NCBI GenBank assembly: GCA_003141835.1
Contig: PLNR01000002.1
Coordinates: forward strand, 14,026-78,025
DNA: 64,000 nt
Direction: 5' to 3'
Source: Candidatus Omnitrophota bacterium
GTDB taxonomy: Bacteria > Omnitrophota > Gorgyraeia > Pluralincolimonadales > Pluralincolimonadaceae
Shown: positions 3,921 to 44,270 of the stretch, one piece after another
Layout: each line of letters starts with the position of its first letter
Position numbering within the stretch: position 1 is the stretch's first letter
Notes under the pieces: generated by a model
The model's database searches: none
Told to the model about the DNA's origin: nothing
What the model saw: only the letters and a program-made list of their open reading frames with translations
Position numbers and translations under genes: made by a program

Positions 3921-3928
3921 AGATATTA

Positions 3929-7423: not shown

Positions 7424-7438
7424 GCGTATATTTCAGAA

Positions 7439-8185: not shown

Positions 8186-8343
8186 TAGCGAACCTCAATG
8201 TTTTGAACTAATTACCAACATTACACCGGTTCGCTATTGTCAAGGAGCTATCCGTCTGGAAAGCCAAGCGGTGAGTGTATAAATTACCATAATTCCCAGG
8301 GGGTGTCAACCCCGCACTTTTGACAAAGTGCGGGACTTCGGCG

Positions 8344-20425: not shown

Positions 20426-22531
20426 TTATTCCTCTATCAATGCCTTTATCTGCGGGAGCATCCTCTCGGTTTCCTGCTCCCCGCGCCTTATCAGCGCCTC
20501 TACCTTATACAATTCGAACCACGCCGCGTTCGGCAGGACCGGGTGTATGACGCAATCCGCGTCCTTGGACGAGGCCTCGGCGAATACATACTGCATCGCC
20601 AGCGAGGTGCTCATTATCACGTCGAATACGTTAGGCGCGAATGTCCGGCGGGCCCATCTGCGGAATTTATAGGCGAGCCGCGAAAATACCGTGCGCTGCG
20701 ACAGCCTTATCTCTTCGCTCCTTCGCATCTCCTCGAATTCCTTGAAAGCCTTCATCATCTCTTCCTGGCTGGGCAGGCAATTTACGGCTATTATCTTCTT
20801 TGCGCCGTATTTCGCCAGGACGTCTATCGGGACAGGGTCGAGGGTGCCGCCGTCTATGAGGAAGTCATCCCCGTATCTTACGGGTTTTATAAATGCCGGG
20901 ATAGAACATGAAGCCCTGAGCGCGTCGACAAGGCTGCCCTCCTCAAGAATTATGTTCTCGCGGGAACGGAGCGTATTCGCGACGATCTTTAGCGGTATAT
21001 GCGTATCGTGGAATGTTTTCCTGCCGAGGTATTCGCGGAAAAACCTCTTGAAGTTATTACCGTTCATGAAGCCGCGCAGCGGCAGGAGCGAGAAATCCGC
21101 CAGCGAAAAGACCACGTCTTTCCTCTTGAACCTTAGCGCTATCTTTTCGAGCTCCTCGGCCTCTATTCCGGTCACCCAGAAAGCGGCGACGACAGCGCCG
21201 ATCGACGTGCCGGCGATAAAATCTATCGGAATCTTCTCCCTCTCAAGGACCTTCAGCACGCCGATATGCACCAGCCCGAGGGCCGCTCCTGAGCCGAGCG
21301 CGAGGCCGACGAGGATCTTCCCGATCTCGCGGGCGATCCTCCTTACCGACCTCGAATAGAGGCTCTCCGGTACGGCCAATACCGGCGGCAATCCCGCGGA
21401 CATCATCCCGGCCAATAACCCCAGGTCCGGCAGGACCGCGTAAGCCTTGTGGCCCAGCAATTTGACCTCTTCTTCGAAAGTATCGGTCTGCACGAATTCG
21501 TTTATTATCGCCTTGACCGTGTTGTCGGGATCCGGCACCACTTTTTTGAGTTCGTTGATCAGTTTACCGGTGGCTTTCAGGTTATGCGCATTGCAGTCGC
21601 TGACGACATGTATGAGGTCGGACTGCGCGAGAAGCGAATAGGTCGGTTTGTCTATCTCCGGCGGCATGTCGACAACGATATAATTGAACTCCGACGCCAG
21701 GGAACTCAGGAATGAGATGATGTGCGCGGGTTCGATCTTGCTGTGGTCGTCGCAGCCCAGGTTAAGCAGGTATATGCCCCCGGCTTCGTATTTCGTTATG
21801 AGGGGCTTGGCCTCTTCGTAATTCATGCTGTGGCGCTTCAGGTCGATGCATTTGAGCTCTCCCATCTGCAGCATCGCGGAACATTCGTTCCCTGAGTGGC
21901 TCATATCGAGGAGTATGACCTTCTTGCGCGTCTCGTAGGAGAGCGCTATCGCAAGGTTGACCGCGTACATCGTCCGCCCGGATTTCTTGGCGAGCCCGAA
22001 GACGGATATTATCGAGGACTCGAAGATCGTCCTCTGTTTCGACTGTTCCTTCTGCAGGCGGCGCGAGAGGGCCTCGGTGAGCTTCAAGGCAAGCTGCGGC
22101 ACTTCCTTGAGCAGGCTATCGAAATTCTTTTTGTCTATGCGGAGGATAAGCGAATCGTTTATTATGCGGACAGATGCGGAATGCGGCTCGTTGGTAAGAA
22201 GCGAGATTATGCCTACGTAATCGCCGCGGTGCAGGTGGACAAGCGTCTTCTCTTCCCCGGACGGCGTCCTGACGAATACCTTCGCCCTGCCGGTTATCAT
22301 GCAATAAAAAGAATCTCCCTTCGCGCCTTCGCGGTAGAGGATATGGTTCTTCCTATATTCGGCCACGTAGGAATTATCCTCTATCAGCTTTTGGGCCGCG
22401 CCGGGGAGGCCCGAGAAGATAGGTATCCTTCTTATTATAGACGCTTTATCGATGCTTGGGTTGGCAGGGTTCATCCCTTGTATTATATAGACTTGGGATG
22501 AAAAAGTCAAAAAAAACGCCAACGGCTCCAA
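20426..22531 (-). CDS. tri-domain protein: cyclic-nucleotide-binding domain + ParA/MinD-like domain with degenerate Walker A + patatin-like phospholipase
   Basis: cNMP-binding beta-barrel (GDSFYCMITGRAKV...GDYVGIISLL). Middle domain VFGLAKKSGRTMYAVNLAIAL in place of KGGVGKT. C-terminus has GLALGSGAALGLVHIGVL (Gly-rich), GTSIGA (GxSxG) and DGG. The true start is probably MNPANPSID (~22474). Confidence 0.7.
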   Translation of the reverse strand: MEPLAFFLTFSSQVYIIQGMNPANPSIDKASIIRRIPIFSGLPGAAQKLIEDNSYVAEYRKNHILYREGAKGDSFYCMITGRAKVFVRTPSGEEKTLVHLHRGDYVGIISLLTNEPHSASVRIINDSLILRIDKKNFDSLLKEVPQLALKLTEALSRRLQKEQSKQRTIFESSIISVFGLAKKSGRTMYAVNLAIALSYETRKKVILLDMSHSGNECSAMLQMGELKCIDLKRHSMNYEEAKPLITKYEAGGIYLLNLGCDDHSKIEPAHIISFLSSLASEFNYIVVDMPPEIDKPTYSLLAQSDLIHVVSDCNAHNLKATGKLINELKKVVPDPDNTVKAIINEFVQTDTFEEEVKLLGHKAYAVLPDLGLLAGMMSAGLPPVLAVPESLYSRSVRRIAREIGKILVGLALGSGAALGLVHIGVLKVLEREKIPIDFIAGTSIGAVVAAFWVTGIEAEELEKIALRFKRKDVVFSLADFSLLPLRGFMNGNNFKRFFREYLGRKTFHDTHIPLKIVANTLRSRENIILEEGSLVDALRASCSIPAFIKPVRYGDDFLIDGGTLDPVPIDVLAKYGAKKIIAVNCLPSQEEMMKAFKEFEEMRRSEEIRLSQRTVFSRLAYKFRRWARRTFAPNVFDVIMSTSLAMQYVFAEASSKDADCVIHPVLPNAAWFELYKVEALIRRGEQETERMLPQIKALIEE

Positions 22532-24971: not shown

Positions 24972-25742
24972 ATGAGCATAAAATCATTCGAAAAACTTGT
25001 CGGGATAATGGCGCGCCTGCGCGCAAAGGACGGCTGTCCGTGGGACAAAGCACAGACGCACGCCTCTTTGAAAAAACACATCATCGAGGAGGCTTACGAG
25101 CTTTGCGACGCGATAGATTCCAGGGACCCTGAAAAATTAAAGGACGAGCTCGGGGATTTCCTCTTCCAGGTCATCTTCCAGGCCCAGATCGCGAAAGAAC
25201 GCGGAGCCTTCGACATCGACGATGTCCTGCGTACGTCTGCGAAAAAGATGCTCAACCGCCATCCTCACGTCTTCGGGAAACACAGGGCCAAGGACGAGGA
25301 CGACGCATATAAGCACTGGCAGTCGCGCAAAGAACGGGAAAAGTCCTATAAGGACAGGAAGAGCATCTTAGACGGCGTCCCGAAAACCCTTCCGGCTCTG
25401 ATAAAAGCCCAGAAGGTCTCTAAGCGGGCGGCCCACCGGGGATTTGACTGGCCGGACGTGAAATTCGTCGTAGATAAGGTCCACGAAGAGCTTGAAGAAG
25501 TGAAAGCGGAGATAAAAAGCGGCAACAAGCGCCGCCTCGCCGAGGAGATCGGCGATCTTTTGTTCGTTATCGTGATACTCTCCCGCTTCGGCGGCATCGA
25601 CGCCGAGGAATCTCTCCATAACGCCACCAAAAAATTCGCCAAGCGGTTCGGGAATATGGAGCGCGCGTTAAAAAAGCGGAATAAAAAATTTACTGAATGC
25701 ACTTTCGAAGAACTATACAGGTTGTGGCGGAAAAACCGTTAA
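24972..25742 (+). CDS. mazG: nucleoside triphosphate pyrophosphohydrolase MazG
   Basis: RLRAKDGCPWDKAQTHASLKKHIIEEAYEL...ELGDFLFQV and a duplicated EEIGDLLFVIV motif. Confidence 0.85.
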   Translation: MSIKSFEKLVGIMARLRAKDGCPWDKAQTHASLKKHIIEEAYELCDAIDSRDPEKLKDELGDFLFQVIFQAQIAKERGAFDIDDVLRTSAKKMLNRHPHVFGKHRAKDEDDAYKHWQSRKEREKSYKDRKSILDGVPKTLPALIKAQKVSKRAAHRGFDWPDVKFVVDKVHEELEEVKAEIKSGNKRRLAEEIGDLLFVIVILSRFGGIDAEESLHNATKKFAKRFGNMERALKKRNKKFTECTFEELYRLWRKNR

Positions 25743-26851
25743 TATTTATAGCGTTGCGGTTTAAATACGAATAGAAGAACCAGCCCGGCGATCCACAAGA
25801 TGACAAGGAACGGCGTAGATCCGGCCAGTGAGTCTAAGTAATTAGGGATCCGGCTTTCAGCGGGGTGGAATTTCGCCGCTAGCAACACCGCCTGCGAAAC
25901 TCCTATCCCGAACAACATCCCGAATATTCCGGCAATGTTTATGATGTTGCCTTGTCCTGCCTTCCAAAGGCTTCCGATAAAACACCCGTCTGCAAAGATA
26001 AAACCGAAACCCATTAAAAATGACCCGGCCATCAGATAACCCGCCCCGGAGATATTTTTTTCGACTTCGATCGGGCCGAACAGGGACATCTTCATCCCTA
26101 TCTGGTAGAATAAAGCGAGGCACATGACGGTAAATAAAACGCTGCGCCAGACATACGAGGAACGCGAGATGAACCATTCCTTAAGCATGCTCGACATGCA
26201 TATCGTCCCTCTTTCAGCGACCGCGCCGAATACGAGAAGGAATAATACGGCGAAAACAAAACTTATCTTTCCCTGTGCGCCCAATTTTGAGAATGCCAGT
26301 ATCGCGGCGACAAAAAAAGCGAATAACCCTAAAGCCGCGTAAAAAACGGCCCTTTGGACGCCCTTATCCGCCAGCTCTCCGGGAATGAAAAAATCCTTCT
26401 TTACCATTGCCGTCTTCAAGGTGAGGAATTTCAACAGTTTTGACCCGAAAAATCCGCCCATCACCATGAAAACGGCGTATATCCAGCCCTTTGTTATCAT
26501 GAACGCCGTCAGGTTGAATATCCCGGCGAGGTTGAACAGCACGATCGAATAGACCGACATCGCGGCGACGGTCGCCCCGACGCCCATTATGAGCCCTCCG
26601 GCCAGCCCGTATATCAACGGCTCATAGGTAAGCGGCGTCTTTATCCCGAATTCGCCGAAGATAAAAGCGCTTACGAACGCGCCGAGAATGACAAACCCGA
26701 ATGTCAGGATCGGGTTTTCCAGCAATAAAACGACTGCGCTTTTCTTGTCGGCCAGGTAACTCTGGTTGAAATACCAGAAGACGATAAGCAATACCGCCAA
26801 TACGGGCCCGGTTATTGCATACGGCCAATGCCTAGCGTGATTTTTTCTCAT
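25739..26851 (-). CDS. YeeE/YedE-family membrane protein (thiosulfate/sulfur-compound transporter-like)
   Basis: Two internal repeats, each with a conserved Cys in a Gly-rich loop (AERGTICMSS; FADGCFIGSLWKAG). About 10 TM. Confidence 0.6.
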   Translation of the reverse strand: MRKNHARHWPYAITGPVLAVLLIVFWYFNQSYLADKKSAVVLLLENPILTFGFVILGAFVSAFIFGEFGIKTPLTYEPLIYGLAGGLIMGVGATVAAMSVYSIVLFNLAGIFNLTAFMITKGWIYAVFMVMGGFFGSKLLKFLTLKTAMVKKDFFIPGELADKGVQRAVFYAALGLFAFFVAAILAFSKLGAQGKISFVFAVLFLLVFGAVAERGTICMSSMLKEWFISRSSYVWRSVLFTVMCLALFYQIGMKMSLFGPIEVEKNISGAGYLMAGSFLMGFGFIFADGCFIGSLWKAGQGNIINIAGIFGMLFGIGVSQAVLLAAKFHPAESRIPNYLDSLAGSTPFLVILWIAGLVLLFVFKPQRYKY

Positions 26852-27686
26852 ATTCCTCTACGGCCTCCGGAATGGCCTTTATGAATTCCGAGATCTGGGT
26901 AGCCGGCGTACACCCGATCCTCTCCCCGATAAGGCGGTTGATCGTAAGCGCCTTAAGATCAGCGTCCGGGTCGCCTTTAAACCTCAGGGCCGAGAGCATC
27001 CCTGTTATGGTATCGCCTGTCCCGCCTATCGCTTCCATTGCCGGTATGTTAGGGCCGGTAACTTCATTTACCTTCGCGCCATCGCGATAAATGTAATCAA
27101 TGGCCCCTTTTATCACAGTCGTCTTTGCGGTATTTTTGTTATTATACGCCAGTCCGGCCAGTGATGCGACCGTCAAATTCTTATTTGCGATCTCTTCCCT
27201 TACGTAAAGCGGGTGGGGAGCCATTTCATCCGCGAGAAAATACAATTCACCCTGGTCCGGGGTAAATACGTCGAACTTATCCGCCAGTTTCGTGGTCTTC
27301 ATCAAATACATCCCGCCGGCATCGGCGATAAGCTGCGGCCTCTTCTTAAGCGAGTCGACTTTGGCAATAAACGGCCCGCCGTATCCCACTTTCGGGAACA
27401 TATAATGCAGGGTCACGACATCCGGGTCGTACTTATCGAGATTTTCGAAGACCTCATGGAACATCATGTTGGTGCCGACGCCATCTCCCGAATCCGCGCC
27501 GAATATGCATAGCGGCTTTTGGAGGCCGTAGAATTCGCATATCATGGCTGCAGATGCAGCCATCGCGGCCGTCCCTCTTTCTACGGGAAACTCAGTATCC
27601 CCTATCTTCAGGTTACCGCCGACGGCAGACGCGCTGCCGATATGCAGGCCTGATTTATTAGGTACGGTGCCGATGAGGACGAGCAT
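26832..27686 (-). CDS. YjeF_C-like carbohydrate-kinase-fold protein (NAD(P)HX-dehydratase family-like)
   Basis: VFTPDQGELYFL (compare TPHxGE) and KGAIDYIY.DG...AIGGTGDTITGMLSAL (compare GGSGDvLtG). Confidence 0.45.
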   Translation of the reverse strand: MLVLIGTVPNKSGLHIGSASAVGGNLKIGDTEFPVERGTAAMAASAAMICEFYGLQKPLCIFGADSGDGVGTNMMFHEVFENLDKYDPDVVTLHYMFPKVGYGGPFIAKVDSLKKRPQLIADAGGMYLMKTTKLADKFDVFTPDQGELYFLADEMAPHPLYVREEIANKNLTVASLAGLAYNNKNTAKTTVIKGAIDYIYRDGAKVNEVTGPNIPAMEAIGGTGDTITGMLSALRFKGDPDADLKALTINRLIGERIGCTPATQISEFIKAIPEAVEEYEKKSR

Positions 27687-28226
27687 CTATCCTTTTACCT
27701 TATTTTTTAACGCGTCGAAAGATATCTGAAGCATGTAAGAACAAAGGCTGTTGCCTAATTTTATCGGGTCTTCCGCCTCTTCGATCCTCCGGCCGTAGAG
27801 CTTTTCGGCCACATATGGGATATCAGGGCATCCCCCGCCCGAGATATTGACGATCTTGTGGCCCTTCTTCTCTATGGTTATCTTCATGTTGCCGGCCTTG
27901 CACATTACATATCCGTCGATTTCCGTAAAAGTCGACCTCTTCAGGATATCCGGCAGCATCTCTTTCGCGGAAACGATATTGTAATTCTGCGCTACAGGCT
28001 GCACTTTTATCGTGTTCTCGACCGCCTCCTGTTCGATAAGGTCGAACTCGACGGCGAGGTCGCAGCCTATCCTGAATTCCGGCGGCGGGGCGACAAGCCT
28101 GACAAGGAATCCTTTATCTTCGAGCATCTTATGGGTCTGGATGACCGCCTGGACGCTCCCGTAAAGGATGATCCCCTTAGGCTTGACGTAATTGGGTTCA
28201 AATATTTTTTTCAGCCAATTTGCCAT
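27687..28226 (-). CDS. DUF3343-domain (putative S/Se carrier-like) protein with C-terminal extension
   Basis: GIILYGSVQAVIQTHKMLEDKGFLVRLVAPPPEFRIGCDLAVEF resembles DUF3343. The pairing with YeeE is typical of this family. Confidence 0.5.
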   Translation of the reverse strand: MANWLKKIFEPNYVKPKGIILYGSVQAVIQTHKMLEDKGFLVRLVAPPPEFRIGCDLAVEFDLIEQEAVENTIKVQPVAQNYNIVSAKEMLPDILKRSTFTEIDGYVMCKAGNMKITIEKKGHKIVNISGGGCPDIPYVAEKLYGRRIEEAEDPIKLGNSLCSYMLQISFDALKNKVKG

Positions 28227-28228
28227 AT

Positions 28229-29089
28229 TTACCTGACCAGGTTAAAACCGAGACCTATTATACAATAAGCCAGGAAGGTATACCCCAGATAATAAAGGTA
28301 AAGCCTCCGCTTCAGGATCCTGTTTAATACCAACGCCGAAGGAAAACTTATCCCAGCGCCGGACATCATGAACGTCATCACGACCGCGCTGTTCATTCCC
28401 TTATCCGCCAGCGAGAAGCATATCGGCGCCAGGACGAGTATGTTCGAATATAACGGGAACCCGATAAGCGCGACCAGGGGTATCGCCAGCCATACGGGAA
28501 ACCCGTTGAAGCGCTCAATGAATTTTACCGGTACATAATTATGGATAAAACCGGCGATCACTGCGCCTAATACAAGCGGGACTATCAGGTTCTTCAATAA
28601 AGTGACGGAAAATTTCGCGGCATCCTTGCAGGCATTGCCGCTTTCGAGGCTGCCTTCTTTTGCCTTCTCCCTTATCCCGTCCTCCATCCCCAGCTTCGGG
28701 ACCAGGATGCCCCCCAACGTAGCGGCGAACAGTATCGAGGCCGTAAAATACACGGCGAATTTCCACCCGAAGAGAAAATATATCAATATTACCGCCGAAA
28801 TGTTGAGCAGGGGCGACGAAAAAAGGAACGCCATGGCCGGCCCGGTCTTGAGGCCCGTCTGTACCATGCCGGTAAAGACCGGTATCGTCGTGCAGACGCA
28901 GAAAGGCGTCACCGCCCCGATGACCGCCGAAATGAAATTGCTCACGACCGTCCCGCTCCCCTGCAGCCTGATAAATAACCTGTCCAGCGGCATCTTTCTC
29001 ATCGCGATCCGCGAGACGAACGAGACCGCGAAGAACATCACCACCAGGACCGCGAGAAACTCTATCATATTCTTCAGGATGCTGCTCAT
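28229..29089 (-). CDS. ArsP/DUF318-type permease (TPFCxC motif)
   Basis: GAVTPFCVCTTIP motif. About 8 TM. A two-repeat permease architecture. Confidence 0.55.
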   Translation of the reverse strand: MSSILKNMIEFLAVLVVMFFAVSFVSRIAMRKMPLDRLFIRLQGSGTVVSNFISAVIGAVTPFCVCTTIPVFTGMVQTGLKTGPAMAFLFSSPLLNISAVILIYFLFGWKFAVYFTASILFAATLGGILVPKLGMEDGIREKAKEGSLESGNACKDAAKFSVTLLKNLIVPLVLGAVIAGFIHNYVPVKFIERFNGFPVWLAIPLVALIGFPLYSNILVLAPICFSLADKGMNSAVVMTFMMSGAGISFPSALVLNRILKRRLYLYYLGYTFLAYCIIGLGFNLVR

Positions 29090-30471
29090 TTGCGCCTGTC
29101 CCGGTATATATTATTATAAACGCAGAAAGGGATAAGCTTGCCGTCGGGCTGTATGACGTGTATGCAGCACTTCATCGCCCTTTTTACGTCGAAAGTATAA
29201 GCGTCCATGAACGGTTTTACGACGATCCTGAAGACGTTGTCCTTGAGATGTTCAAGGGCGTCTTTATTGAACGGTATCCCGCAGACGCAGACAAAGTCCT
29301 TTAAGACGCTTGCCGAGTTAAAAGTCGCCGATGCCGACCACAGGCCTTCCAGGGCTTTCCTTAAAACAGGCGCCGGCGTGGTGATCAGCGTATTGCTGAA
29401 ATAATCCAGGTATTTTTCTATGTCAACCTTCCTTGTTATCGGCGTGACTCTACCGTCTTTTATAAATGCGTAGGTCAGGCTGCAGCACGTCGGATAAGGG
29501 CACGGCAGCGGTATGAAATCTGATACTTTAAAGAGCGACTTCGTCTGCTTATCTATCTCCTTGATGACATCCGGCAGCGTCAACCTGTCCATCGGGTCGA
29601 ATTCGATCTTTTCGTTCACGTATATCATCGGCTGGAATGTCACGCCCTTGACGAACTTGTTTTTCAGGCCGTAATTTATTATCTCCCCGACCTGGTTTTC
29701 GTTCAATCCCTTGGCGAGCGTCGCGACAAGCGTCGTCGGGATATTGTATTTTGAAATGTTCTCCAGGGCGCGCTGTTTCAACTTAAAGACTTCCTTGCTG
29801 CCGCGCAGGACCTCGTATATGCGCGGCTCAAAACCGTCAAATTGGAAATAAAGTTCAACGTTGCAATCGGCCAGTCTCCTTGCCAGATCCTCATCTTCGG
29901 CCAGCCTCACTCCGTTAGTGTTGATCATGAGGTGCTTTATCTTCTTGGAATGGGCCATCTCGATTATCTTGAACAGGTCGGGGTGGAGCGTCGGCTCTCC
30001 GCCGCTTATCTGCAGGACCTCAGGGCTCCCCTCGCACCTGACATAGCTATCGAGCATGAAATCTATCGTTTTCAGGTCGAGGTATTTGCTTCCGGTCGCT
30101 TTAGCGAAACAGGATGTGCAGCAGAGGTTGCAGCCGTCGGTTATCTCGAGAAGCGCCACGCAGGTATGCTGCTGGTGGTCCGGGCAGAGCCCGCAATCCT
30201 CAGGACAACCGTGCTTTACTTCGGAACCGTATTCGAGCGGCACCCTTCCCGGCTTATTGAATGCCAGGCTGTGCCTGTACATATTGACGTCGGAAGATAT
30301 CAACCCCTCGAACTCTCCGTGCTCGGCGCAGCGCTTGAACATATACACCTTCTCACCCCTGACCCTCACCTGCGCGTCCACGGTCTTCTTGCATACCGGG
30401 CAGATGCTCCGCGTCAGCTCGAGGAAGATGTAATCTTTTTCAAGTCGGCTTGTTTTCAGAAAATTTTTCAT
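29086..30471 (-). CDS. radical SAM protein with N-terminal zinc-ribbon and Cys-rich C-terminal (auxiliary-cluster-like) extension
   Basis: CNLCCTSC (CxxxCxxC), ISGGEPTLHPD and NTNG. N-terminal CPVCKK...C..HG. C-terminal PCPYPTCC, CVCG and CCIHV cysteines. Confidence 0.7.
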   Translation of the reverse strand: MKNFLKTSRLEKDYIFLELTRSICPVCKKTVDAQVRVRGEKVYMFKRCAEHGEFEGLISSDVNMYRHSLAFNKPGRVPLEYGSEVKHGCPEDCGLCPDHQQHTCVALLEITDGCNLCCTSCFAKATGSKYLDLKTIDFMLDSYVRCEGSPEVLQISGGEPTLHPDLFKIIEMAHSKKIKHLMINTNGVRLAEDEDLARRLADCNVELYFQFDGFEPRIYEVLRGSKEVFKLKQRALENISKYNIPTTLVATLAKGLNENQVGEIINYGLKNKFVKGVTFQPMIYVNEKIEFDPMDRLTLPDVIKEIDKQTKSLFKVSDFIPLPCPYPTCCSLTYAFIKDGRVTPITRKVDIEKYLDYFSNTLITTPAPVLRKALEGLWSASATFNSASVLKDFVCVCGIPFNKDALEHLKDNVFRIVVKPFMDAYTFDVKRAMKCCIHVIQPDGKLIPFCVYNNIYRDRRK

Positions 30472-30758
30472 TATCTAAAAAACATTCCTCTTAGTTGCAT
30501 GCCGAAAGCCGTTAACCCGCAGCCTCCGAAGACAGAAACCGGTATCAGGACTATAATCAATAAAAGGGCTATCATGACCCCTTTCAGCCCTTTGCCCCTG
30601 GCGGACCTAACGACCATGACAAGCCCTATCAGGAAGAATGCGCCGACAGATAACCACGAAAGAAGCATGGCGGCGCTTGAGTTCAAAAATCCGACAATGA
30701 ACGCAAATATCATAAAAATTGGGGCAATCTTTAAAACGAAGTTTTTGTCCATCTCCAT
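30471..30758 (-). CDS. small membrane protein (hypothetical)
   Basis: 95-aa ORF with three hydrophobic helices, wedged between the ICMT-like and radical SAM genes. Confidence 0.4.
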   Translation of the reverse strand: MEMDKNFVLKIAPIFMIFAFIVGFLNSSAAMLLSWLSVGAFFLIGLVMVVRSARGKGLKGVMIALLLIIVLIPVSVFGGCGLTAFGMQLRGMFFR

Positions 30759-30766: not shown

Positions 30767-31324
30767 TTAGAATATCCCCGGTACCAGCATTTTTACGCTT
30801 TTTATGTAACCGATATATTGCGGGAATTCTTCCTCCAACATCTCCTCTTCCTTCTTCGCCCTGAAATAATACGCAATGCCTACAACGGGTGAAAACAGCA
30901 GTATCATGTAATTAGATATAAGAAGTCCGGAGCCGACCAGGACGAGCATCATGAAGAAATACATCGGATGCCTGACGAACCTGTAAGGGCCGTTCATGAC
31001 CAGGGTGTGCCCCTCTTTTATCTCCGCCGAAATGGACCAGTTGCGCCGGAGAGTGAGCAAAGCCCATACATAGCCCGCGACCCCGGTAAACATGAGGATC
31101 GCACCGGCAGTTTCGCTGATGGCATTACCCTCGTACGTCCCTATGCGGCCCCTTACAAAGAACCACCCTAAGGCCACGGCGAAAGCCGCGATGACAAATA
31201 TGTTGTTGCCCGGGCCCGCCTTCTTCTTCGCTTTCCCGGAAAAAATTATCTGCGCCAATACGGCGGCGCCGAGGAGGAAACCCCAGCAAAATTCAAATAT
31301 CATTAACGGTATTTTGTTTGCCAT
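30767..31324 (-). CDS. ICMT/PEMT-family membrane methyltransferase
   Basis: The C-terminal region with RHPMY and a following E-rich segment is typical of the isoprenylcysteine carboxyl / phospholipid methyltransferase family. Confidence 0.6.
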   Translation of the reverse strand: MANKIPLMIFEFCWGFLLGAAVLAQIIFSGKAKKKAGPGNNIFVIAAFAVALGWFFVRGRIGTYEGNAISETAGAILMFTGVAGYVWALLTLRRNWSISAEIKEGHTLVMNGPYRFVRHPMYFFMMLVLVGSGLLISNYMILLFSPVVGIAYYFRAKKEEEMLEEEFPQYIGYIKSVKMLVPGIF

Positions 31325-31401
31325 GATATTTAATTAATGGATCACACCTTTTAATACCAAAATGCACGCGCCGAATAACAACAAGCCGGCTATGGGGATC
31401 G

Positions 31402-31725
31402 CTAGTGCGGTAAAAGTAAACCGCATGCTCCCATAATTAACAATATGGGTATTCCGATCGTGCCGATTATGCCGGAAGCGGCCGCCAACCCGGTAGCAAT
31501 AAATGCCCGCCTTTTACCCGCGTAGACCAGGATCAAGGCGTCGATCACGATCATTACTATTGCGATCACCGCTATGACCATTATTTTATTCCAAAAAGCG
31601 AAATACCAATCCATGGTGATCTTGAGCAAGAACGCAATAAGGGCGATCGCAGCCGGTATGGCTATGAAGCCTATTAGGAAATCTGCGGCTTTTTCTTTCC
31701 AGCTATTATAAATTTTCTTTTCCAT
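31402..31725 (-). CDS. small membrane protein (hypothetical)
   Basis: 107-aa hydrophobic ORF. Confidence 0.4.
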   Translation of the reverse strand: MEKKIYNSWKEKAADFLIGFIAIPAAIALIAFLLKITMDWYFAFWNKIMVIAVIAIVMIVIDALILVYAGKRRAFIATGLAAASGIIGTIGIPILLIMGACGLLLPH

Positions 31726-31798: not shown

Positions 31799-32476
31799 TT
31801 ATGGGTTCCGTTGCTCATCTCTAATAAACCTCCTTTTTAAAAGATATACCGCAACCCAACCAAAAACAACCGCCGATATGATCTGCGCCGAGTCGAGGCC
31901 AAAATAACCGCCCGTAGCGTCGGCGCGGAAAAACTCTATCCAGAACCTGAAGAACGTGTACGCCAGCAAGAAAATCCTGAATAAATCCCCTTCCGTTTTA
32001 ATGCCTGCCCGGATAGACCACAGGTAAAGAAAAAGTCCGAAACAAAACGCCGACTCAATCAACTGCGTCGGAAGGCCGTTTATCCCGTAGCAGCAGCCGT
32101 TAAAATAACAGCCTATCCTCCCTATCGCGATGCCAATAGCCAGGGCCGGGGCAAAGAGGTCACCTGTCGAACGGGTAAACTTAATTATCCTCTTGGTTAT
32201 CACTACTCCGAGATAACCGCCTATCAAGCCGCCGACAAGCGTCTTCCCGCCGATCTGGGGTATGAAAATATGGGACAGGTGCTTGGAAAAATAATCCCAA
32301 TACACAAAAAATACCGAACCCAGCTTGCTGCCTATCAACCCGCCGACAAGCGCCCCGAAGAAGATATAAAGGAGCGGCTCGAGGGATACCTTCTTCCGCC
32401 TTATCTCAAGAAAATACAGGCACAGTCCTGTCGCATACGCTATCGCGCTGAATAAACTATACGCCGGTAGATGCAT
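31799..32476 (-). CDS. Lgt-family (prolipoprotein diacylglyceryl transferase-like) membrane protein
   Basis: LAIGIAIGRIGCYFNGCCYG resembles the Lgt GRIGNFINGELWG signature but with Cys substitutions. 225 aa, polytopic. Confidence 0.5.
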   Translation of the reverse strand: MHLPAYSLFSAIAYATGLCLYFLEIRRKKVSLEPLLYIFFGALVGGLIGSKLGSVFFVYWDYFSKHLSHIFIPQIGGKTLVGGLIGGYLGVVITKRIIKFTRSTGDLFAPALAIGIAIGRIGCYFNGCCYGINGLPTQLIESAFCFGLFLYLWSIRAGIKTEGDLFRIFLLAYTFFRFWIEFFRADATGGYFGLDSAQIISAVVFGWVAVYLLKRRFIRDEQRNP

Positions 32477-34175
32477 CGCCTGTCAGCTCCTTGACCGCAT
32501 TCCTCTTTATCTTCCTCGTCGACGTCTTCGGCAGCTCGTCGAAATAAAGCATAAAATCCGGGATCTTCTTGTATTCGGCCAGGTCGTTACCCAGGCGGCT
32601 GAGTTCCGCCCCGATTTTTTTCTTAATAAGCTCTTTGTCCTTCTTCTCTTCCCCTTCAAACCGCTCGAGGTTTGGGACTATCACTGCAAACACTTCCTCA
32701 GTCCCGGCCTTAAGCCCCTCGGTCGCCTTCTTGCCGAGCACGCAGATCTCTTTAATGTACGGGCTGGCCGACATCACCTCTTCTATCTCCTCGGGAAAAA
32801 CCTTCTTGCCCCCGCCGAGGACTATCAGGTTCCTGATGCGGCCGGTAATATACAAAAACCCGTCTTTATCAAGCCTCCCGATGTCGCCCGTGTGCAGCCA
32901 CCCGTTTTTTATCATTTCGGACGTCTTCCCGGGATTTTTGTAGTATCCTTTCATGATGTGGTCACCGCGGGTCACTATCTCTCCTTCGTCCGTGGAAAAA
33001 GTCCCGTCCGGTTTCATGAGTTTTACTTCCACTCCGGGCAGCGGTTTGCCGACCGAGCCGTATTTGAGTTCTTCTAAAGTGTTTACCGTGATGACCGGGG
33101 ACGTCTCCGTGAGCCCGTAACCCTGGAGGATGTTAAATCCCATTGCGTTGAAATCTATCTCTACCGCCGGGTCGAGCGGCGCCCCGCCCGAGACAAAACC
33201 CCTGAGCATTCCCCCGAACTGGTCGTGCACTTTCCGGAAAAATAATTTCCCCGCCTTGATCTTGAACCGGAGCAAAAACCTGCACAGGTGGAGCATCCCG
33301 AAGAAGAGCTGTTTCCCCGGGAACGGCAATGATTGCGCTTTCTTTATTATCCCGCCGTGGAATATCTTCAGCACGAGCGGCACGGTTATCACGACTGTGG
33401 TGCGCGTTTCGTTCATGAGGGCCATGATATTTGCCGGCTTAAGGCTGTCGCAATAAGTGACCGTGGCGCCGACATAAAGCGGGGAAAGGAGCCCGCCGGT
33501 CATCTCGAGCATGTGGTTCAGCGGCAGCATCGAAAGGAAATTGTCCTCCTCGGAATAATGAACGATCCTGTTCAGCTCCTTCGCCTGGAATATGAGGTTT
33601 TTGTAAGTCAGTTCCACGCCTTTAGCTATGCCGGTCGTGCCCGACGTATACACGATAAGCGCGGTGTCCTCGAGGCCGATGGGAAGATATTTTTTATCCC
33701 CGTACCTTATCTTAAGGTCTTTAAGCTTTATTACGTCTTTACGGTCGGCATCATCCAGGAGAAATATGTGTTTTAGGCCGGGCAGTTTAGGTTTAATAGC
33801 GTCTATGACAGGCAGGTGTTTTTCCGAAACAAATATGAATTTTGCGCCGCTGTCGCTTAGTATGAATTCTATCTCCTTCTCGCTTAGTTTCGCGTCCATC
33901 GGCACCACTATCCCGCCGCATGAGATCACCCCAAAAAGCGCGATCGCCCATTCAGGCCTCGACTCCGAAAGTATCGCGGCCCTGTCACTCTTTTCGATCC
34001 CGAGCTTCAAAAGCGTCGACGAGACATCTACCGCCCTCTCGCCGAGCGGTACATACGACAGGCTGTTCCACCCATCCTTGGTCTTTATCTGGAGGGCGGT
34101 CTTCGAGAACCATCTCCTGTTTATGGATTCCATTATTTCATGTATGGAAAGATCTTCGAAATTAGGTCTGGGCAT
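32457..34175 (-). CDS. second long-chain acyl-CoA ligase (AMP-binding enzyme)
   Basis: YTSGTTGIAKGV, GYGLTETSP and a C-terminal PKTSTRKIKR. Confidence 0.85.
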   Translation of the reverse strand: MPRPNFEDLSIHEIMESINRRWFSKTALQIKTKDGWNSLSYVPLGERAVDVSSTLLKLGIEKSDRAAILSESRPEWAIALFGVISCGGIVVPMDAKLSEKEIEFILSDSGAKFIFVSEKHLPVIDAIKPKLPGLKHIFLLDDADRKDVIKLKDLKIRYGDKKYLPIGLEDTALIVYTSGTTGIAKGVELTYKNLIFQAKELNRIVHYSEEDNFLSMLPLNHMLEMTGGLLSPLYVGATVTYCDSLKPANIMALMNETRTTVVITVPLVLKIFHGGIIKKAQSLPFPGKQLFFGMLHLCRFLLRFKIKAGKLFFRKVHDQFGGMLRGFVSGGAPLDPAVEIDFNAMGFNILQGYGLTETSPVITVNTLEELKYGSVGKPLPGVEVKLMKPDGTFSTDEGEIVTRGDHIMKGYYKNPGKTSEMIKNGWLHTGDIGRLDKDGFLYITGRIRNLIVLGGGKKVFPEEIEEVMSASPYIKEICVLGKKATEGLKAGTEEVFAVIVPNLERFEGEEKKDKELIKKKIGAELSRLGNDLAEYKKIPDFMLYFDELPKTSTRKIKRNAVKELTGDASTGV

Positions 34176-34902
34176 CTTCTTTCGCCTCTTTATGCCTGTT
34201 CCTCACCGATTCCGCCGGTATGCCGTAATATATGTCGCGCGGCTCTACTTTAGTCCCTTTTCTCAATACGGCGCTCGCCCCGATTATGGCACTATCCCCG
34301 ATCTCGCATCCCGGCATTATGGTCGAATGGGAGCCTATGGTAACGTTCTTGCCTATCTTCACTTTCCTTAATTTCAATACTCCACGCTCGACGATGTGGC
34401 CGATGATTATCGCCCCTCCCCCGATTACTGTATTGTCCCCGATCTCAAGAAGGGTAGCGTCGAAAACAAATTTCGAATTTATCTGGACATTCTTGCCCAG
34501 TTTTGCGCCGAGCAGCCGCAAAAAAATGTTCGAGAAAGGCGTGAGGAGGATGAAATCTATGAAAGTAAAATTAACGAGAAGGTAGAGCGCGCTGACGAAC
34601 GCCCATTTGAAAGCCTCGGCTGAAAATAGCGGGTAATTGCCTTCCTTTAGCCGGATAAAAAATACCGTGCGGAAAAGCCCGACCAATAAAATAAGCGTCA
34701 ACCCGAAAAGGAAATATCCGCCGGCCAGAGAAAGTCCCAACAGCAAGTATTTGACGGCCAAGGGCATATTCTGGGCGAATGACCAGGTCTTAAAGAACAG
34801 CGCGATCCCGGGAATAAGCGCTAAACCAAAAAAAACAGTGCCTATCAAATACATTACGACTGAACTCAGCAGTTGGACCAATGACACAAACAACCATTTC
34901 AT
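34162..34902 (-). CDS. membrane-anchored hexapeptide-repeat (left-handed beta-helix) acyl/acetyltransferase
   Basis: N-terminal TM helices. C-terminal IGDNTVIGGGAIIIGHIV...IGKNVTIGSHSTIMPGCEIGDSAIIGASAV hexapeptide repeats. Confidence 0.7.
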   Translation of the reverse strand: MKWLFVSLVQLLSSVVMYLIGTVFFGLALIPGIALFFKTWSFAQNMPLAVKYLLLGLSLAGGYFLFGLTLILLVGLFRTVFFIRLKEGNYPLFSAEAFKWAFVSALYLLVNFTFIDFILLTPFSNIFLRLLGAKLGKNVQINSKFVFDATLLEIGDNTVIGGGAIIIGHIVERGVLKLRKVKIGKNVTIGSHSTIMPGCEIGDSAIIGASAVLRKGTKVEPRDIYYGIPAESVRNRHKEAKEDAQT

Positions 34903-34915: not shown

Positions 34916-35659
34916 TTACAGGGTCTCTTTAAACCAATTCGAGACCAGCTCTTTCATCCTCTCCGGGTACTCCTCGATAAGCCGTTCTGCGTGAAGGCCT
35001 TTGGGAATTATGGCCAGCTTCTTGTCCTTGGCCGTCGCGGCATCATAAAGTTTTTTTGAATGGTAATCCTTTATGACCCAGTCCCTGTCGCCGTGTATGA
35101 ATAACATGGGCACTTTAATACCGGCGATGCGGTCTATCGGCCTGACCTTAGGCAAAAAGATGCTGCCGGGCCTCACGCCTTTGCCTTCCCACTTGCATTC
35201 TAAATTAGCTTTAAGGTCGGAAAGCATGCCGGGTTCCCAAAAATTATAATCCATCCTCCAAAAACCGGTCGGCGCGCTGACAAGTACCAGGCTTTTTACC
35301 TCCGGCCGCCTGGCCGCGATGATTATCGATATCGCCGCGCCTAACGAAAACCCCATCAGGCCGATCTTTTTATACCCCTGGCTTACCGCATAATCCAGTA
35401 CCGCTTCGAGATCTAACGGCTCTTTCGCCGTCCAGGCGAATTTACCGCCGCTCTCGCCGTGCCCGCGGAAATCGAAGATCATCACGTCATGCGAATCCGC
35501 GACAAGCCCGATCGACAGCCTTATGGCGCTGTTACTCTTGCTGTTGAAAAATCCCGGGCAGATGATAACGAGTGAATCGCGGCCGTTCTTGAAATGCTCG
35601 TAGGCGATTTCCACGCCGTCGACCGTAGTCAGCCTGCCGGATAATACGTGGTTCGTCAT
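34916..35659 (-). CDS. alpha/beta hydrolase (GFSLGA nucleophile elbow)
   Basis: RGHGESGG...GFSLGAAISI...HGDRD. Start overlaps the upstream stop (ATGA). Confidence 0.7.
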   Translation of the reverse strand: MTNHVLSGRLTTVDGVEIAYEHFKNGRDSLVIICPGFFNSKSNSAIRLSIGLVADSHDVMIFDFRGHGESGGKFAWTAKEPLDLEAVLDYAVSQGYKKIGLMGFSLGAAISIIIAARRPEVKSLVLVSAPTGFWRMDYNFWEPGMLSDLKANLECKWEGKGVRPGSIFLPKVRPIDRIAGIKVPMLFIHGDRDWVIKDYHSKKLYDAATAKDKKLAIIPKGLHAERLIEEYPERMKELVSNWFKETL

Positions 35660-38469: not shown

Positions 38470-38914
38470 CTTCGGCCCTCCTTAAGCCCTTTTCGATCCT
38501 GCTTATTATTTCGGTGAGGTCGCCCTTATCCTTTTCATCCAGGAACCATACGAGCTGCTTGAGGTTATCGAAATATTTCTCCTCGACCCTCTTAATGAGA
38601 TCCTTCCCCTTCTGCGTTATGGCGATGTACTTTACCCTGCGGTCGTCGGTACTGCCTTCCCTTTTCACGAGCCCGAGTTTCTCGAGCCTGTCGATAATGC
38701 CGGTAATGTTCGAGCGGGAAACGACGCGATGGCCGCCCAGGTCGCTCTGCGTCAACCTCTTTTCCGAATACTTAAGTATGACCAGGACGTCGTATTGGGC
38801 GGTCGTGACGCCGTATTTGCTGAAAAACCTGTCGCCTGCCTTGACAAGCGCTTCGGAAATACGCACCACTTTCAGCATAGTGTCGTTATTTAGCATGTCC
38901 AGTTCGGTAGCCAT
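38456..38914 (-). CDS. MarR-family transcriptional regulator
   Basis: LTTAQYDVLVIL...LTQSDLGGHRVVSRSNITGIIDRLEKLGLVKRE...DRR, a MarR wHTH. The start is chosen at MATELD, 7 nt after GGAG. Confidence 0.8.
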   Translation of the reverse strand: MATELDMLNNDTMLKVVRISEALVKAGDRFFSKYGVTTAQYDVLVILKYSEKRLTQSDLGGHRVVSRSNITGIIDRLEKLGLVKREGSTDDRRVKYIAITQKGKDLIKRVEEKYFDNLKQLVWFLDEKDKGDLTEIISRIEKGLRRAEDVLL

Positions 38915-38941
38915 GACCATCTCCTCACATTTGTTATTATG

Positions 38942-40488: not shown

Positions 40489-40845
40489 ATGATAGCGGAT
40501 TACGGATACGTAGGGTTATTCCTCCTCTTCGGGATCGCTTTTGTGGCCGGGGCATTTGTCGTATCCTGGTTCCTGCGCCCGCGCGACCCCAATCCCGCCA
40601 AAAAATCATGTTACGAGTGCGGCGAAGTGGTAAAGGGCAGTTCGTGGATACAGTTTAACGTCCGGTACTACCTTATAGCCCTTATATTCGTCGTCTTCGA
40701 CGTCGAAGTCCTCTTCCTCGTGCCCTGGGCGGTCGTCCTCCGCGAGCTGGGGATCGTCGCCTTCGTTGAGATGATTGTCTTCATAGCCATCCTTATGGCC
40801 GGCCTAGCATACGCCTGGAAGAAAGGAGCCCTCGAATGGCAGTGA
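40489..40845 (+). CDS. nuoA: NADH-quinone oxidoreductase subunit A
   Basis: 118-aa 3-TM protein with a CYECG motif, at the head of the nuo cluster. Confidence 0.8.
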
Positions 40846-41348
40846 TCGAGAAGATCCCGGCTTCGGGGCTTATCGAGAAGTTCCCGGGCGGCGGGATCAT
40901 CCTAACTACCGGGGAGAGCGTCCTTAAATGGAGCAAGGCCTCCTCGCTCTGGCCGCTTACCTTCGGCCTCGCCTGCTGCGCCATCGAGATGATAAGCACG
41001 GGCGCCCCCAGGTTCGACATAGACAGGTTCGGCGCAGGGGTATTCCGCGCCTCCCCGAGGCAATGCGACGTGATGATCGTTGCCGGGACTATCTGCGTCA
41101 AGATGGGCGATTGCATGAAACGCCTCTACGCTCAGATGCCCGAGCCGAAATACGTCATCGCGATGGGCAATTGCGCTGTCTCAGGCGGGATCTTCTACCA
41201 TGATACCTATTCTGTCGTCAAAGGCACCGAGGCGCTCGGGATACCGGTCGATGTCCATATACCGGGCTGCCCGCCGCGTCCCGAGAATCTCCTCTTCGGC
41301 CTGATGAAACTCCAGGAAAAAATAAGGAACGAAAAACGTGGCAGTTGA
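40836..41348 (+). CDS. nuoB: NADH-quinone oxidoreductase subunit B
   Basis: LACCAIEM...GTICVKMG...PGCPP, the N2-cluster Cys motifs. Confidence 0.9.
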
Positions 41349-41736
41349 CGCTCCCGAAAAACAGGTAGAGATACAAAAAGAAGCCCTGTTGGAGGCGGCG
41401 CGCCGCCTTTTTAGCGAAGGATTCGATAACCTCCATTGCGTTACCGCGGTAGATAAGAACGATAGCATCGAGCTTGTCTACATCTTCTATTCTATGGGCA
41501 GTCGCGCCTGCACGATATTAAAGACACGGCTTGCGCTTAACGACCTTGCCGTAGAGAGCCTGGCAAATATCTGGAGATCAGCAGACTGGCTCGAGCGCGA
41601 AGTATACGACCTCTTCGGAGTGAAATTCCTGAACCACCCGAATTTAAAAAGAATATTAAATCCGGACGATTGGGACGTCCATCCGCTAAGAAAGAGCTTC
41701 GAGAGGCCGGATATCGTAAAGAAGACGAGATATTGA
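41338..41736 (+). CDS. nuoC: NADH-quinone oxidoreductase subunit C (30-kDa subunit), GTG start
   Basis: ERE.YDLFG..F..HP.L.R.L motif. 132 aa. Confidence 0.8.
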
Positions 41737-41737
41737 T

Positions 41738-43830: not shown

Positions 43831-44270
43831 TAAGATACTTTAAAGACATAATCACCGGCGCCTGGAGCCTGATAAAGGGACTCTTCGTCACATTCAAGAA
43901 TTTGTTCTCAAAAGCGGTGACCATACAATACCCGACGCAGAAATTACAGATGACCGAGAGGTATCGCGGCCTCGCGGACCTGCGCGTCGAGAAATGCATC
44001 AAATGTTACATGTGCGTCAAGATATGCCCGACCGGATGCCTGTCGCTGGCGCACAAGGAGAACGCCGAGAAGAAAAAGGAGTTCGAGCATTTCAAGTACA
44101 ACATGGAGCTCTGCTGTTTCTGCGGCATGTGCGAACAGGTATGCCCGACGCAGGCGATATATATGAACAAGATATACGAGATAGCGGTATACGACCGCGA
44201 TAAGATAACGCACATAGACCTTTTAAATGCGGGGAAGTATGATGAGTGGGCCCATCCAACTGTTAAATAA
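43827..44270 (+). CDS. nuoI: NADH-quinone oxidoreductase subunit I (2x[4Fe-4S])
   Basis: CIKCYMCVKICP and CCFCGMCEQVCP. The start ATG at 43827 overlaps the nuoH stop (ATGA). Confidence 0.85.
   Translation: MIRYFKDIITGAWSLIKGLFVTFKNLFSKAVTIQYPTQKLQMTERYRGLADLRVEKCIKCYMCVKICPTGCLSLAHKENAEKKKEFEHFKYNMELCCFCGMCEQVCPTQAIYMNKIYEIAVYDRDKITHIDLLNAGKYDEWAHPTVK

Follow-up and report, generated by a model that had tools for sequence, protein, structure and literature searches.

LipA, BioB and MiaB are radical S-adenosylmethionine (SAM) enzymes that insert sulfur at the expense of a sacrificial cluster. In the radical SAM enzyme Tes (GDGT-MAS), a bond forms between a lipid radical and one sulfide of an auxiliary 4Fe-4S cluster, giving a lipid C-S(cluster) intermediate (PMC13459092), and bacterial homologues of Tes have been proposed, without verification, as makers of branched tetraethers and serve as genomic markers for the producers of these lipids (PMC8941075, PMC11868695). 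YedE, YedF and DUF3343 have been proposed as selenium genes (Lin et al. 2015, PMC5322559), and ArsP-family permeases with a CxC pair include exporters of organoarsenicals, of Cu/Zn and of the SAO system. Here, a gene cluster was analyzed in which relatives of these proteins are encoded next to relatives of the diacylglyceryl transferase Lgt and of isoprenylcysteine methyltransferase (ICMT). It is located in a 64,000-nt stretch of DNA from Candidatus Omnitrophota bacterium (contig PLNR01000002.1, positions 14,026 to 78,025), which is called the window in the following and to which all coordinates refer unless another locus is named. The cluster is a real, conserved and apparently undescribed coupling of a selenium/sulfur-trafficking module to a radical SAM enzyme and to lipid- and thiol-modifying membrane enzymes, whose function is hypothetical.

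A preliminary description made from the letters alone had reported five coupled genes at 25739-30471. All five were recovered as abutting or overlapping minus-strand open reading frames (ORFs), and Pfam agrees with each of the family calls made there. In the order from the radical SAM gene to the YeeE-like gene, they encode a radical SAM enzyme with 461 aa (29086-30471; Radical_SAM, PF04055, and the zinc ribbon Zn_ribbon_HMPTM, PF23545), an ArsP_1 permease with 286 aa and the motif TPFCVC visible in the translation (28229-29089; 150 bits), a two-domain Cys carrier with 179 aa composed of DUF3343 (Se_S_carrier) and DUF8182 (27687-28226; PF11823, 43 bits), a putative ATP-dependent enzyme with 284 aa and an NnrD/YjeF_C-like ribokinase fold, here termed CarbK (26832-27686; Carb_kinase, 36 bits), and a YeeE/YedE-like membrane channel with 370 aa of a subtype here termed W-type (25739-26851; Sulf_transp, 67 bits). 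In the same direction, the first two genes overlap by 4 nt, the next pair is separated by 2 nt, the third pair abuts without a gap and the last two overlap by 20 nt. While the co-operonic layout held, the boundaries did not, as the conserved block reaches upstream as far as 32476 and comprises genes that had been omitted, all on the minus strand: a small membrane peptide with 95 aa lacking Pfam and NCBIfam matches (30471-30758), an integral-membrane SAM methyltransferase of the ICMT/PEMT family (30767-31324; ICMT 56 bits, PEMT 48 bits), a second small membrane peptide with 107 aa, detected as an ORF and by its C-terminal pattern (31402-31725), and a divergent Lgt-like paralogue (31799-32476; LGT, 118 bits). 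The five genes make up the 3′ half of a conserved, membrane-centred system rather than an operon of their own.

For comparison, stretches of genomes and metagenomes were collected and designated L001, L002 and so on. The five-gene order is kept in other Omnitrophota contigs with protein identities of 50-86% and different flanks, and the whole block from Lgt to YeeE is kept between unrelated flanks in two Omnitrophota genomes, the radical SAM proteins of which are 75% and 66% identical to that of the window. Among named homologues, the nearest to the radical SAM protein (74-75% identity) belong to Omnitrophota metagenome-assembled genomes (MAGs), and the nearest to CarbK (80-86%) as well as the closest genome locus are also from Omnitrophota. 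Metagenome contigs were scanned with an alignment of the W-type YeeE proteins, which yielded 33 loci, 28 of them with upstream sequence. The CarbK gene directly precedes the W-type YeeE gene in all 28, and it is itself preceded by the DUF3343-DUF8182 gene wherever the contig reaches far enough. Because the order is kept despite differing flanks and the CarbK-YeeE pairing holds in 28 of 28 loci, the arrangement is far beyond chance.

Three gene orders were found. Order A, in Omnitrophota, reads Lgt, peptides, ICMT, peptide, radical SAM, ArsP, DUF3343-DUF8182, CarbK, YeeE (window, L001-L004, L010-L012, L090-L094, L097, L100). Order B reads radical SAM, Lgt, peptide, ICMT, DUF3343-DUF8182, CarbK, YeeE and has no ArsP gene (the Chloroflexia-labelled MAG L047 and the metagenome contigs L098, L101-L103, L107, L109, L115). 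Order C, in Firmicutes HGW-14 (L035) and in L123, reads peptide, radical SAM, Lgt, ArsP, DUF3343-DUF8182, CarbK and ends with a fusion of the YeeE-like and ICMT-like domains in a single protein (484 aa in L035). Radical SAM, Lgt-like and ICMT-like genes were present in each of the 12 loci with at least 5 kb of upstream sequence, and all-vs-all clustering of every ORF in the loci recovered exactly the core families common to the three orders. The radical SAM, Lgt-like, ICMT-like, Cys-peptide, DUF3343-DUF8182, CarbK and YeeE-like core is a conserved multi-gene system. In L047 (10001-10868), Carb_kinase is encoded by two separate ORFs of 173 aa and 83 aa, which may reflect a frameshift, decay to a pseudogene or an error in the assembly. 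Some Omnitrophota clusters carry an extra gene of 163-174 aa without family assignment (L003 6590-7102; L094 3852-4343), the product of which has an N-terminal lipobox (…ASGC / …ATGC); the window has no copy of it.

Outside such clusters, relatives of the carrier/CarbK pair are found in selenium loci. A CarbK-family alignment scanned over one genome per species gave at least 579 relatives, and the best 80 loci were annotated by our own ORF calls and phmmer; 74 of them were not of the radical SAM type. In these 74, DUF3343-DUF8182 adjoins CarbK in 72, a selenium-type YedE is present in 62, TusA/YedF in 56 and SelD within the locus in 20. Distant CarbK homologues (43-46% identity) are part of the order LysR, porin, YedE, TusA/YedF, DUF3343-DUF8182, Carb_kinase, SelD. 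There, the SelD calls were shortened, and reading upstream revealed GSGU or GAGU, i.e. selenocysteine; UGA read-through at the GxGU motif was seen in 18 of 18 checkable SelD genes. The hosts of the SelD-type pair are Desulfobacterota, Nitrospirota, Dehalococcoidia, Firmicutes and one Bathyarchaeia MAG. The DUF3343-DUF8182/CarbK pair is near-constant in the loci with YedE, YedF and selenocysteine-containing SelD (L007 6095-9983; L008, L009, L014-L089). In four Dehalococcoidia loci (L032, L046, L049, L057), two DUF3343/Carb_kinase modules occur in tandem, one with a full YedE and two YedF-like genes and the other with a DUF3343 that is short and a YedE-like ORF of half the size.

The DUF3343 protein of the window is 37% identical to the SelD-linked versions, and all of its Cys motifs (GCDL, SGGGCPD and LCxY) are common to both. 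The DUF8182 domain is present in the precomputed annotation of DUF3343 orthologues, and the AlphaFold model (predicted local distance difference test, pLDDT, 83) places the SGGGCPD loop between a strand and the N-terminus of a helix; no significant solved structural neighbour of this model was found. CarbK scored 36.2 bits against TIGR00196 (NnrD), with a cut-off of 129.85, and the CarbK-family profile matched TM0922 with an E value of 5e-4. Foldseek searches with its AlphaFold model (pLDDT 94) gave the NnrD protein TM0922 and EF1790 as top matches (probability 1.0, TM about 0.6). The motifs GGTGDTITG, which contains the nucleotide/anion-hole motif GGxGD, IADAGxMY and FTPDxGE are invariant in the family, and no curated NCBIfam model exists for either protein of the pair. 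From its modelled structure, CarbK is predicted to be a distant NnrD-like, ribokinase-fold and putatively ATP-dependent enzyme. The two window proteins are orthologues of the pair tied to YedE/YedF and selenocysteine-containing SelD, with the same local order and an adjacent channel of the YedE/YeeE superfamily. The window cluster differs from those loci in having neither SelD nor YedF/TusA, and the radical SAM, Lgt and ICMT proteins stand in the place of SelD as consumer. Lin et al. (PMC5322559) do not mention the CarbK partner, and a full-text literature search found no paper linking the kinase-like CarbK gene to selenium; the pair is a previously unremarked link to this element.

The channel is of another subtype than in the selenium loci. 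The YeeE-like protein scored below all cut-offs of the NCBIfam models, with 64.5 bits for YedE/FdhT, 47.3 bits for TsuA (cut-off 400) and 28.4 bits for the selenium-type YedE model TIGR04112, for which at least 200 bits are required and the YedE of L007 reaches 487; it also gave no BLAST match to the selenium-type YedE proteins of L007 and L009. In an alignment to Spirochaeta YeeE (6LEO), C218 and C290 correspond to the relay cysteines C22 and C91, while the third cysteine, C293, has no equivalent. The window channel thus shares the fold family and two relay positions with the YeeE/YeeD (TsuA/TsuB) system for thiosulfate uptake (6LEO, 8J4C) but has no YeeD/TusA partner, and its repeat order appears swapped in the alignment. 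The second permease belongs to the same Pfam family as ArsP, SaoE and SO_0444 and has their conserved intramembrane vicinal Cys pair. It differs from them in scoring below the cut-offs of both the SO_0444 and the SaoE model and in having no ars or SAO context; a solved structural relative was not found. As its gene is common to orders A and C only and missing from one of the three conserved orders, the ArsP permease is accessory and dispensable for the cluster, and it was rejected as a core exporter. The window contains no ars genes flanking the cluster. In L001, a complete arsenic island (155-5087; ArsP-like permease, ArsM with 360 bits, ArsF, ArsG, Acr3, ArsC) is located directly upstream on the same strand, a neighbourhood restricted to this one Omnitrophota lineage.

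The radical SAM protein aligns over residues 19-458 to GDGT-MAS (PDB 7TOL; E value 1e-75) with all cluster cysteines kept, and it shares the subfamily architecture of an N-terminal Cys/His ribbon, CX3CX2C and further conserved cysteines for auxiliary clusters towards the C-terminus. It differs from Tes in its bacterial host and in its surroundings, which consist of selenium/sulfur-trafficking, Lgt-like and ICMT-like genes and not of archaeal lipid genes. The best curated NCBIfam model was TrsS (NF045646), matched over the full length with 366.3 bits, and Tes (NF045702) gave 336.5 bits, compared to cut-offs of 490 and 450; the cluster-linked homologues of L035 and L047 scored 351 and 374 bits with the TrsS model. 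The protein is therefore assigned, by sequence, to the Tes/GDGT-MAS family but to neither of the two curated families. TrsS (Haft & Tolstoy 2025, as cited in PMC13188914) is likewise a Tes-like radical SAM (seleno)protein with a selenium connection; the window protein differs in its score below 490 bits and in that no UGA or selenocysteine was seen in it or its orthologues. Shortened Omnitrophota entries (P0029, P0052) were considered as selenocysteine candidates and rejected, as their shortening is due to the end of a contig and a stretch of N and not to UGA codons.

Two further identities were rejected for this protein. Among the best 25 of 52 NCBIfam matches, only Tes-type and generic models occurred; TIGR04167, which from RefSeq product names we take to be the ArsS family, was not among them, and the ArsS papers gave no family link to the window protein. 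This argues against ArsS or ArsL, and with the ArsS/ArsM and ArsL/ArsM pairs the cluster has in common only the logic of a radical SAM enzyme, a SAM methyltransferase and a supply of a soft nucleophile; these pairs and the sulfur insertases have radical SAM enzymes of differing families, and the window methyltransferase is of the integral-membrane ICMT type. SPASM-family models matched the radical SAM core only (residues ~100-270, 35-53 bits), and neither a SPASM/twitch C-terminal part nor an architecture for recognition of ribosomally synthesized and post-translationally modified peptides (RiPPs) was present, so that a SPASM/RiPP maturase was dismissed.

Sixteen cysteines are invariant across the radical SAM subfamily, and all of them are common to homologues of about 50% identity without selenium or sulfur genes; no convincing residues specific to the cluster-linked proteins were found, as all Cys motifs occur in the unlinked homologues. 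In a neighbour-joining tree, the radical SAM proteins of orders A and C group together, while those of order B nest among Chloroflexi homologues. The CarbK, DUF3343-DUF8182 and YeeE proteins of order B are most similar to their Omnitrophota counterparts. Because of this disagreement, the module has probably moved between phyla, and the radical SAM partner seems swappable. Unlinked relatives do not stand among lipid-synthesis genes but next to thiol/selenol genes: three of three adjoin a DVU_1556/ArsM-like class I methyltransferase, DUF3179 and thioredoxin/redoxin or DsbD, and one (L006) also an OsmC-related (seleno)protein. This Chloroflexi-type arrangement forms a second recurrent neighbourhood of the radical SAM gene (L005 7001-10800; L006 7358-10700; L125 3558-9242); a literature search for DVU_1556 gave no match.

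The Lgt-like protein scored 87.2 bits against TIGR00544, with a cut-off of 118.9, and its homologues in L035 and L047 reached 66.9 and 103.8 bits. For comparison with E. coli Lgt (5AZB), we take H103, R143, N146, E151, G154, Y235, R239 and E243 to be the catalytic and signature residues. Of these, R143, G154, Y235, R239 and E243 are conserved. In orders A and C, H103 is replaced by V and both N146 and E151 by C, which gives the Cys-rich signature GRIGC-x-x-(N/G)-GCC-x-G, in the window GRIGCYFNGCCYG; in order B, N146 is kept and position 151 is D (GR(L/V)GNFLAGDAYG). The ICMT-like protein exceeded the cut-off of Pfam PF04140 (56 bits against 24) and stayed below that of the NCBIfam isoprenylcysteine methyltransferase equivalog (92 bits against 160). 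It matched ICMT of M. acetivorans (4A2N) over residues 76-183, the catalytic half, with an E value of 2e-18, whereas MddA was matched weakly with 19 bits. The window also encodes a Ste24-type M48 protease with a 'CAAX prenyl protease N-terminal' domain (8344-9480, minus strand), about 21 kb away from the ICMT-like gene, which is suggestive in view of the ICMT-like enzyme and the Cys peptides.

Between one and four small peptides of 65-120 aa are encoded in each of the 15 loci with enough sequence, covering all three orders. Their last segment consists of a K/R patch, 13-31 (mostly 19-23) largely hydrophobic residues, small residues, a Cys and a tail of 1-17 aa, with the endings ...L-x-G-[TSAG]-C... 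in order A, ...G-[VFI]-T-C-F... in order B and ...(L/M)-C-F-COOH in order C. In the window, the 95-aa peptide, which has paralogues with a like C-terminal pattern in every cluster locus, ends with a K/R-rich stretch, about 20 hydrophobic residues, FGGC and a 16-aa tail. The 107-aa peptide ends with ...GKRRAF-(hydrophobic stretch)-LIMGAC-GLLLPH, and its family has the conserved N-terminus M-x-KK-I/V-Y...KEK..DF in the Omnitrophota loci. A putative ORF of 30 aa on the minus strand (31334-31426; MRFTFTALAIPIAGLLLFGACILVLKGVIH), found by pattern scan and translation, overlaps in a different frame with the 3′-terminal part of the 107-aa ORF; with its LFGAC motif and ...IH end, it resembles the 96-aa and 65-aa peptides of L010 and L092 and may represent either a third peptide or a remnant. 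The C-terminal layout looks like the n-region, h-region and lipobox of a lipoprotein signal peptide but is located at the C-terminus of small polytopic proteins. Because of co-location and sequence pattern, the peptides are candidate substrates of the Lgt-like enzyme. Compared to the maturation of bacterial lipoproteins by Lgt-LspA-Lnt and to eukaryotic CaaX processing (prenylation, Ste24/Rce1, ICMT), the cluster thus has enzymes of the Lgt and ICMT families together with candidate substrates in which a signal-peptide-like helix is followed by a small residue and Cys. It differs in the sub-threshold family score and altered signature residues of the Lgt-like enzyme, in the C-terminal position of the Cys and in a core without LspA, Lnt and CaaX protease. 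The pairing of Lgt and ICMT is not a described pathway.

Each component gene resembles a known family, yet most of them miss its curated threshold or context test. The further claims of the preliminary description fared differently. Its link of YeeE and DUF3343 to sulfur/selenium trafficking is strongly supported by the orthologous pair embedded in the selenocysteine-type YedE-YedF-SelD loci, and the gene-neighbourhood analysis it had suggested showed the core recurring in three gene orders and 12 of 12 loci. It had not recognized the combination as a described pathway, and we also found no published description, with the TrsS-defining paper lying outside the literature search. Assignment of the radical SAM protein and the kinase by profiles, also suggested there, gave the families, while the curated cut-offs for TrsS, Tes and TIGR00196 were not reached; for CarbK, the Carb_kinase family stands and the plain label 'kinase' does not, given its distance to NnrD (36.2 versus 129.85 bits). 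The ArsP permease had served as a prop for reading the cluster in terms of 'export' and 'arsenic', a role it loses with its absence from order B. Synthesis and export of an organo-sulfur, -selenium or -arsenic compound, as had been suggested, may be possible, but the genes added here speak for chemistry on a membrane lipid or lipopeptide and less for a soluble small molecule.

Our preferred reading, to which we give a probability of about 40%, is that one membrane system would deliver reduced selenium or sulfur to radical SAM, Lgt and ICMT chemistry on a lipid or on the Cys of the peptides. The YeeE-like channel would take up a selenium or sulfur species, which the carrier and the ATP-dependent enzyme would convert to a protein-bound reduced form and pass to the membrane enzymes instead of SelD. 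The radical SAM enzyme would then make or use a carbon-sulfur or carbon-selenium bond on a lipid chain, the Lgt-like enzyme would move diacylglycerol onto a thiol or selenol, for which the Cys of the peptides encoded in the cluster is the most plausible candidate, and the ICMT-like enzyme would methylate the product; in two of the three orders, the ArsP-type CxC permease might move a thiophilic substrate or by-product. We infer that the trio of YeeE-like, DUF3343-DUF8182 and CarbK proteins supplies the reduced chalcogen and that its consumers are the three membrane enzymes. By analogy with Tes, the radical SAM chemistry is likely the point where sulfur or selenium meets carbon, and the acceptor is presumably a peptide Cys or a lipid. 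In a more far-reaching form, which is rather doubtful, an undescribed bacterial pathway would install selenium (or sulfur) in a membrane lipid or in a diacylglyceryl-modified mini-protein, with the carbon-chalcogen bond formed by the Tes-type radical SAM enzyme, lipidation by Lgt, methylation by ICMT and the DUF3343-DUF8182/CarbK pair as the missing and widely conserved step by which reduced selenium passes from channels of the YedE type to its consumers, SelD among them.

Several results weigh against the delivery of selenium or sulfur to these enzymes. In the window, tblastn found no match to SelD or TusA and no tRNA-Sec was present; phmmer found no match to SelD, TusA or YedF in any cluster locus, and SelD, YedF/TusA, SelA/B and tRNA-Sec were absent from the window and from 10 kb around any cluster locus. 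Because of these absences, sulfur is as likely as selenium. The YeeE-like subtype differs from the selenium-type YedE, no selenocysteine version of the radical SAM protein was found, and a UGA-aware pattern scan of the cluster loci detected no such version of the small peptides either; in one peptide of L109, Arg replaces the Cys. The active site of Lgt faces the outer leaflet and that of ICMT the cytosol, and because they lie on opposite sides, action of both on one Cys would need a flip. The Lgt-like activity may differ from diacylglyceryl transfer because H103, N146 and E151 are lost in two orders. Finally, the grouping of the order B enzymes with ordinary Chloroflexi homologues and not with those of orders A and C points to a radical SAM partner that can be exchanged or that was recruited repeatedly.

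The family of the radical SAM enzyme itself allows another explanation. The radical SAM, Lgt-like and ICMT-like enzymes could yield an all-carbon product in the manner of Tes, such as a membrane lipid or lipoprotein anchor that is macrocyclic or coupled tail to tail, with neither sulfur nor selenium in it, while the trio would only build or repair the auxiliary Fe-S (or Fe-Se) cluster. The Tes-family fold and the conserved auxiliary-cluster cysteines are in line with this, as are the role of the cluster sulfide as a transient handle in Tes (PMC13459092), the proposal that bacterial Tes homologues make membrane-spanning lipids (PMC8941075) and the fatty-acid ligase, acyltransferase and hydrolase genes flanking the cluster in Omnitrophota. 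However, thousands of subfamily homologues with identical Cys motifs function without such a module, the sulfide is not consumed in Tes, so that no dedicated supply is expected, and the YeeE::ICMT fusion ties the chalcogen channel to the methyltransferase and not to the radical SAM enzyme. We consider this explanation unlikely.

Detoxification of metalloids or chalcogens, which is close to the view of the preliminary description, seems equally improbable. Selenium, tellurium or arsenic would be bound by the Cys proteins, methylated by the ICMT-type enzyme, alkylated by the radical SAM enzyme and expelled through ArsP, YeeE or both, in analogy to thiol methylation by MddA and arsenic alkylation by ArsS and ArsL. 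The CxC pair of the ArsP_1 permease, the true ars island upstream of the cluster in L001 and the ArsM-like/DVU_1556-like methyltransferases beside the radical SAM relatives would suit this, and a radical SAM enzyme working with a methyltransferase is known from ArsS/ArsM and ArsL/ArsM. But order B has no ArsP, the core has no ArsR, ArsC or ArsM, and ars neighbours occur in one lineage only. TIGR04167, presumably ArsS, is not among the best 25 of 52 NCBIfam matches of the radical SAM protein, and the weak MddA match of the ICMT-like protein (19 bits) is far exceeded by that to ICMT (92 bits). The Lgt-like enzyme and the conserved Cys peptides would have no role.

The peptides could also be precursors of a lipopeptide or RiPP-like product, to which we give a low probability as well. 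The Lgt-like enzyme would lipidate the Cys and a cut of the signal-peptidase type would free a tiny lipopeptide, in the Firmicutes type possibly diacylglyceryl-Cys-Phe; the radical SAM and ICMT-like enzymes would tailor it, the DUF3343-DUF8182/CarbK pair would modify the Cys sulfur, and the two permeases would provide export or immunity. The one to four paralogous peptides per locus with n-region, h-region, small-residue-Cys and tails of 1-17 aa fit this, an Lgt-family enzyme is adjacent in every locus, and a Ste24-like CaaX protease is encoded elsewhere in the window (8344-9480). Yet the peptides have 65-120 aa and conserved N-terminal halves instead of a leader and a hypervariable core, the tails past the Cys are not conserved, the conserved core lacks a peptidase and an ABC exporter, and the radical SAM enzyme lacks a SPASM/RiPP-recognition architecture. 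That there is no functional unit, with a lipid-modifying set and an ordinary selenium/sulfur uptake set merely adjacent, fits the data poorly and is very improbable, for although each family is individually explained elsewhere and the DUF3343-DUF8182/CarbK pair works with SelD in most genomes, the sets co-occur in 12 of 12 loci with three gene orders, three phylum labels and differing flanks, start and stop codons overlap, YeeE and ICMT are fused, and the W-type YeeE is found only in this context, beside CarbK in 28 of 28 loci.

A whole branch of bacterial Tes homologues is wired to thiol/selenol and not to lipid-synthesis genes, which calls for caution in their use as markers. If a pathway installing selenium or sulfur is indeed present, many bacterial 'Tes homologues' counted as markers for branched glycerol dialkyl glycerol tetraethers do something else. 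The cluster also bears on the missing steps of selenium delivery from uptake by YedE/YedF to SelD, where many selenocysteine-using anaerobes carry the DUF3343-DUF8182 and NnrD-like pair at precisely this point. If functional, the Lgt paralogue, the ICMT paralogue and the Cys-ended mini-proteins would constitute a novel type of protein or lipid modification in bacteria.

Upstream of the conserved block, further minus-strand genes precede it with overlapping junctions. They encode an enzyme like long-chain-fatty-acid-CoA ligase (32457-34175), a hexapeptide acyltransferase (34162-34902) and an alpha/beta hydrolase (34916-35659), all assigned by Pfam/NCBIfam, as well as a DUF2339 membrane protein (35656-38469) and a MarR regulator (38456-38920), both assigned by Pfam. 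The operon thus probably extends to ~38920 and is headed by the MarR gene, upstream of which the best sigma-70-like match of a consensus scan marks a promoter-like site (38975-38947, minus strand). The hydrolase, acyltransferase and ligase genes form an Omnitrophota-specific flank, members of which adjoin the cluster in L001, L010, L094 and L097; the trio was not found in orders B and C by all-vs-all ORF clustering, and its three window products gave no match to DVU_155x-type models. The operon head of MarR and DUF2339 is not conserved in other cluster loci. No riboswitch or other RNA element was detected in the 64-kb window apart from two tRNAs.

These tRNAs, for Asp and Val (7345-7515), lie beside a stretch of low GC content (4000-8200; 35-39% compared to ~53%), which contains small ORFs without family, a DUF4145 protein and a helix-turn-helix protein and may be an integrated element. 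Complex I genes were found on the plus strand at 40836-44270, downstream of the head of the cluster's operon (NuoB-like 40836-41348, NuoD-like 41738-42856, NuoH-like 42853-43830, NuoI-like 43668-44270); the ORF annotation reached 44270. Two further multidomain proteins are encoded on the minus strand: a 652-aa protein combining an alpha/beta (dienelactone) hydrolase domain with an Omp85 outer-membrane barrel (13714-15672) and a 701-aa protein in which a cyclic-nucleotide-binding domain is fused to a ParA/MinD-like AAA_31 domain and a patatin phospholipase (20426-22531).

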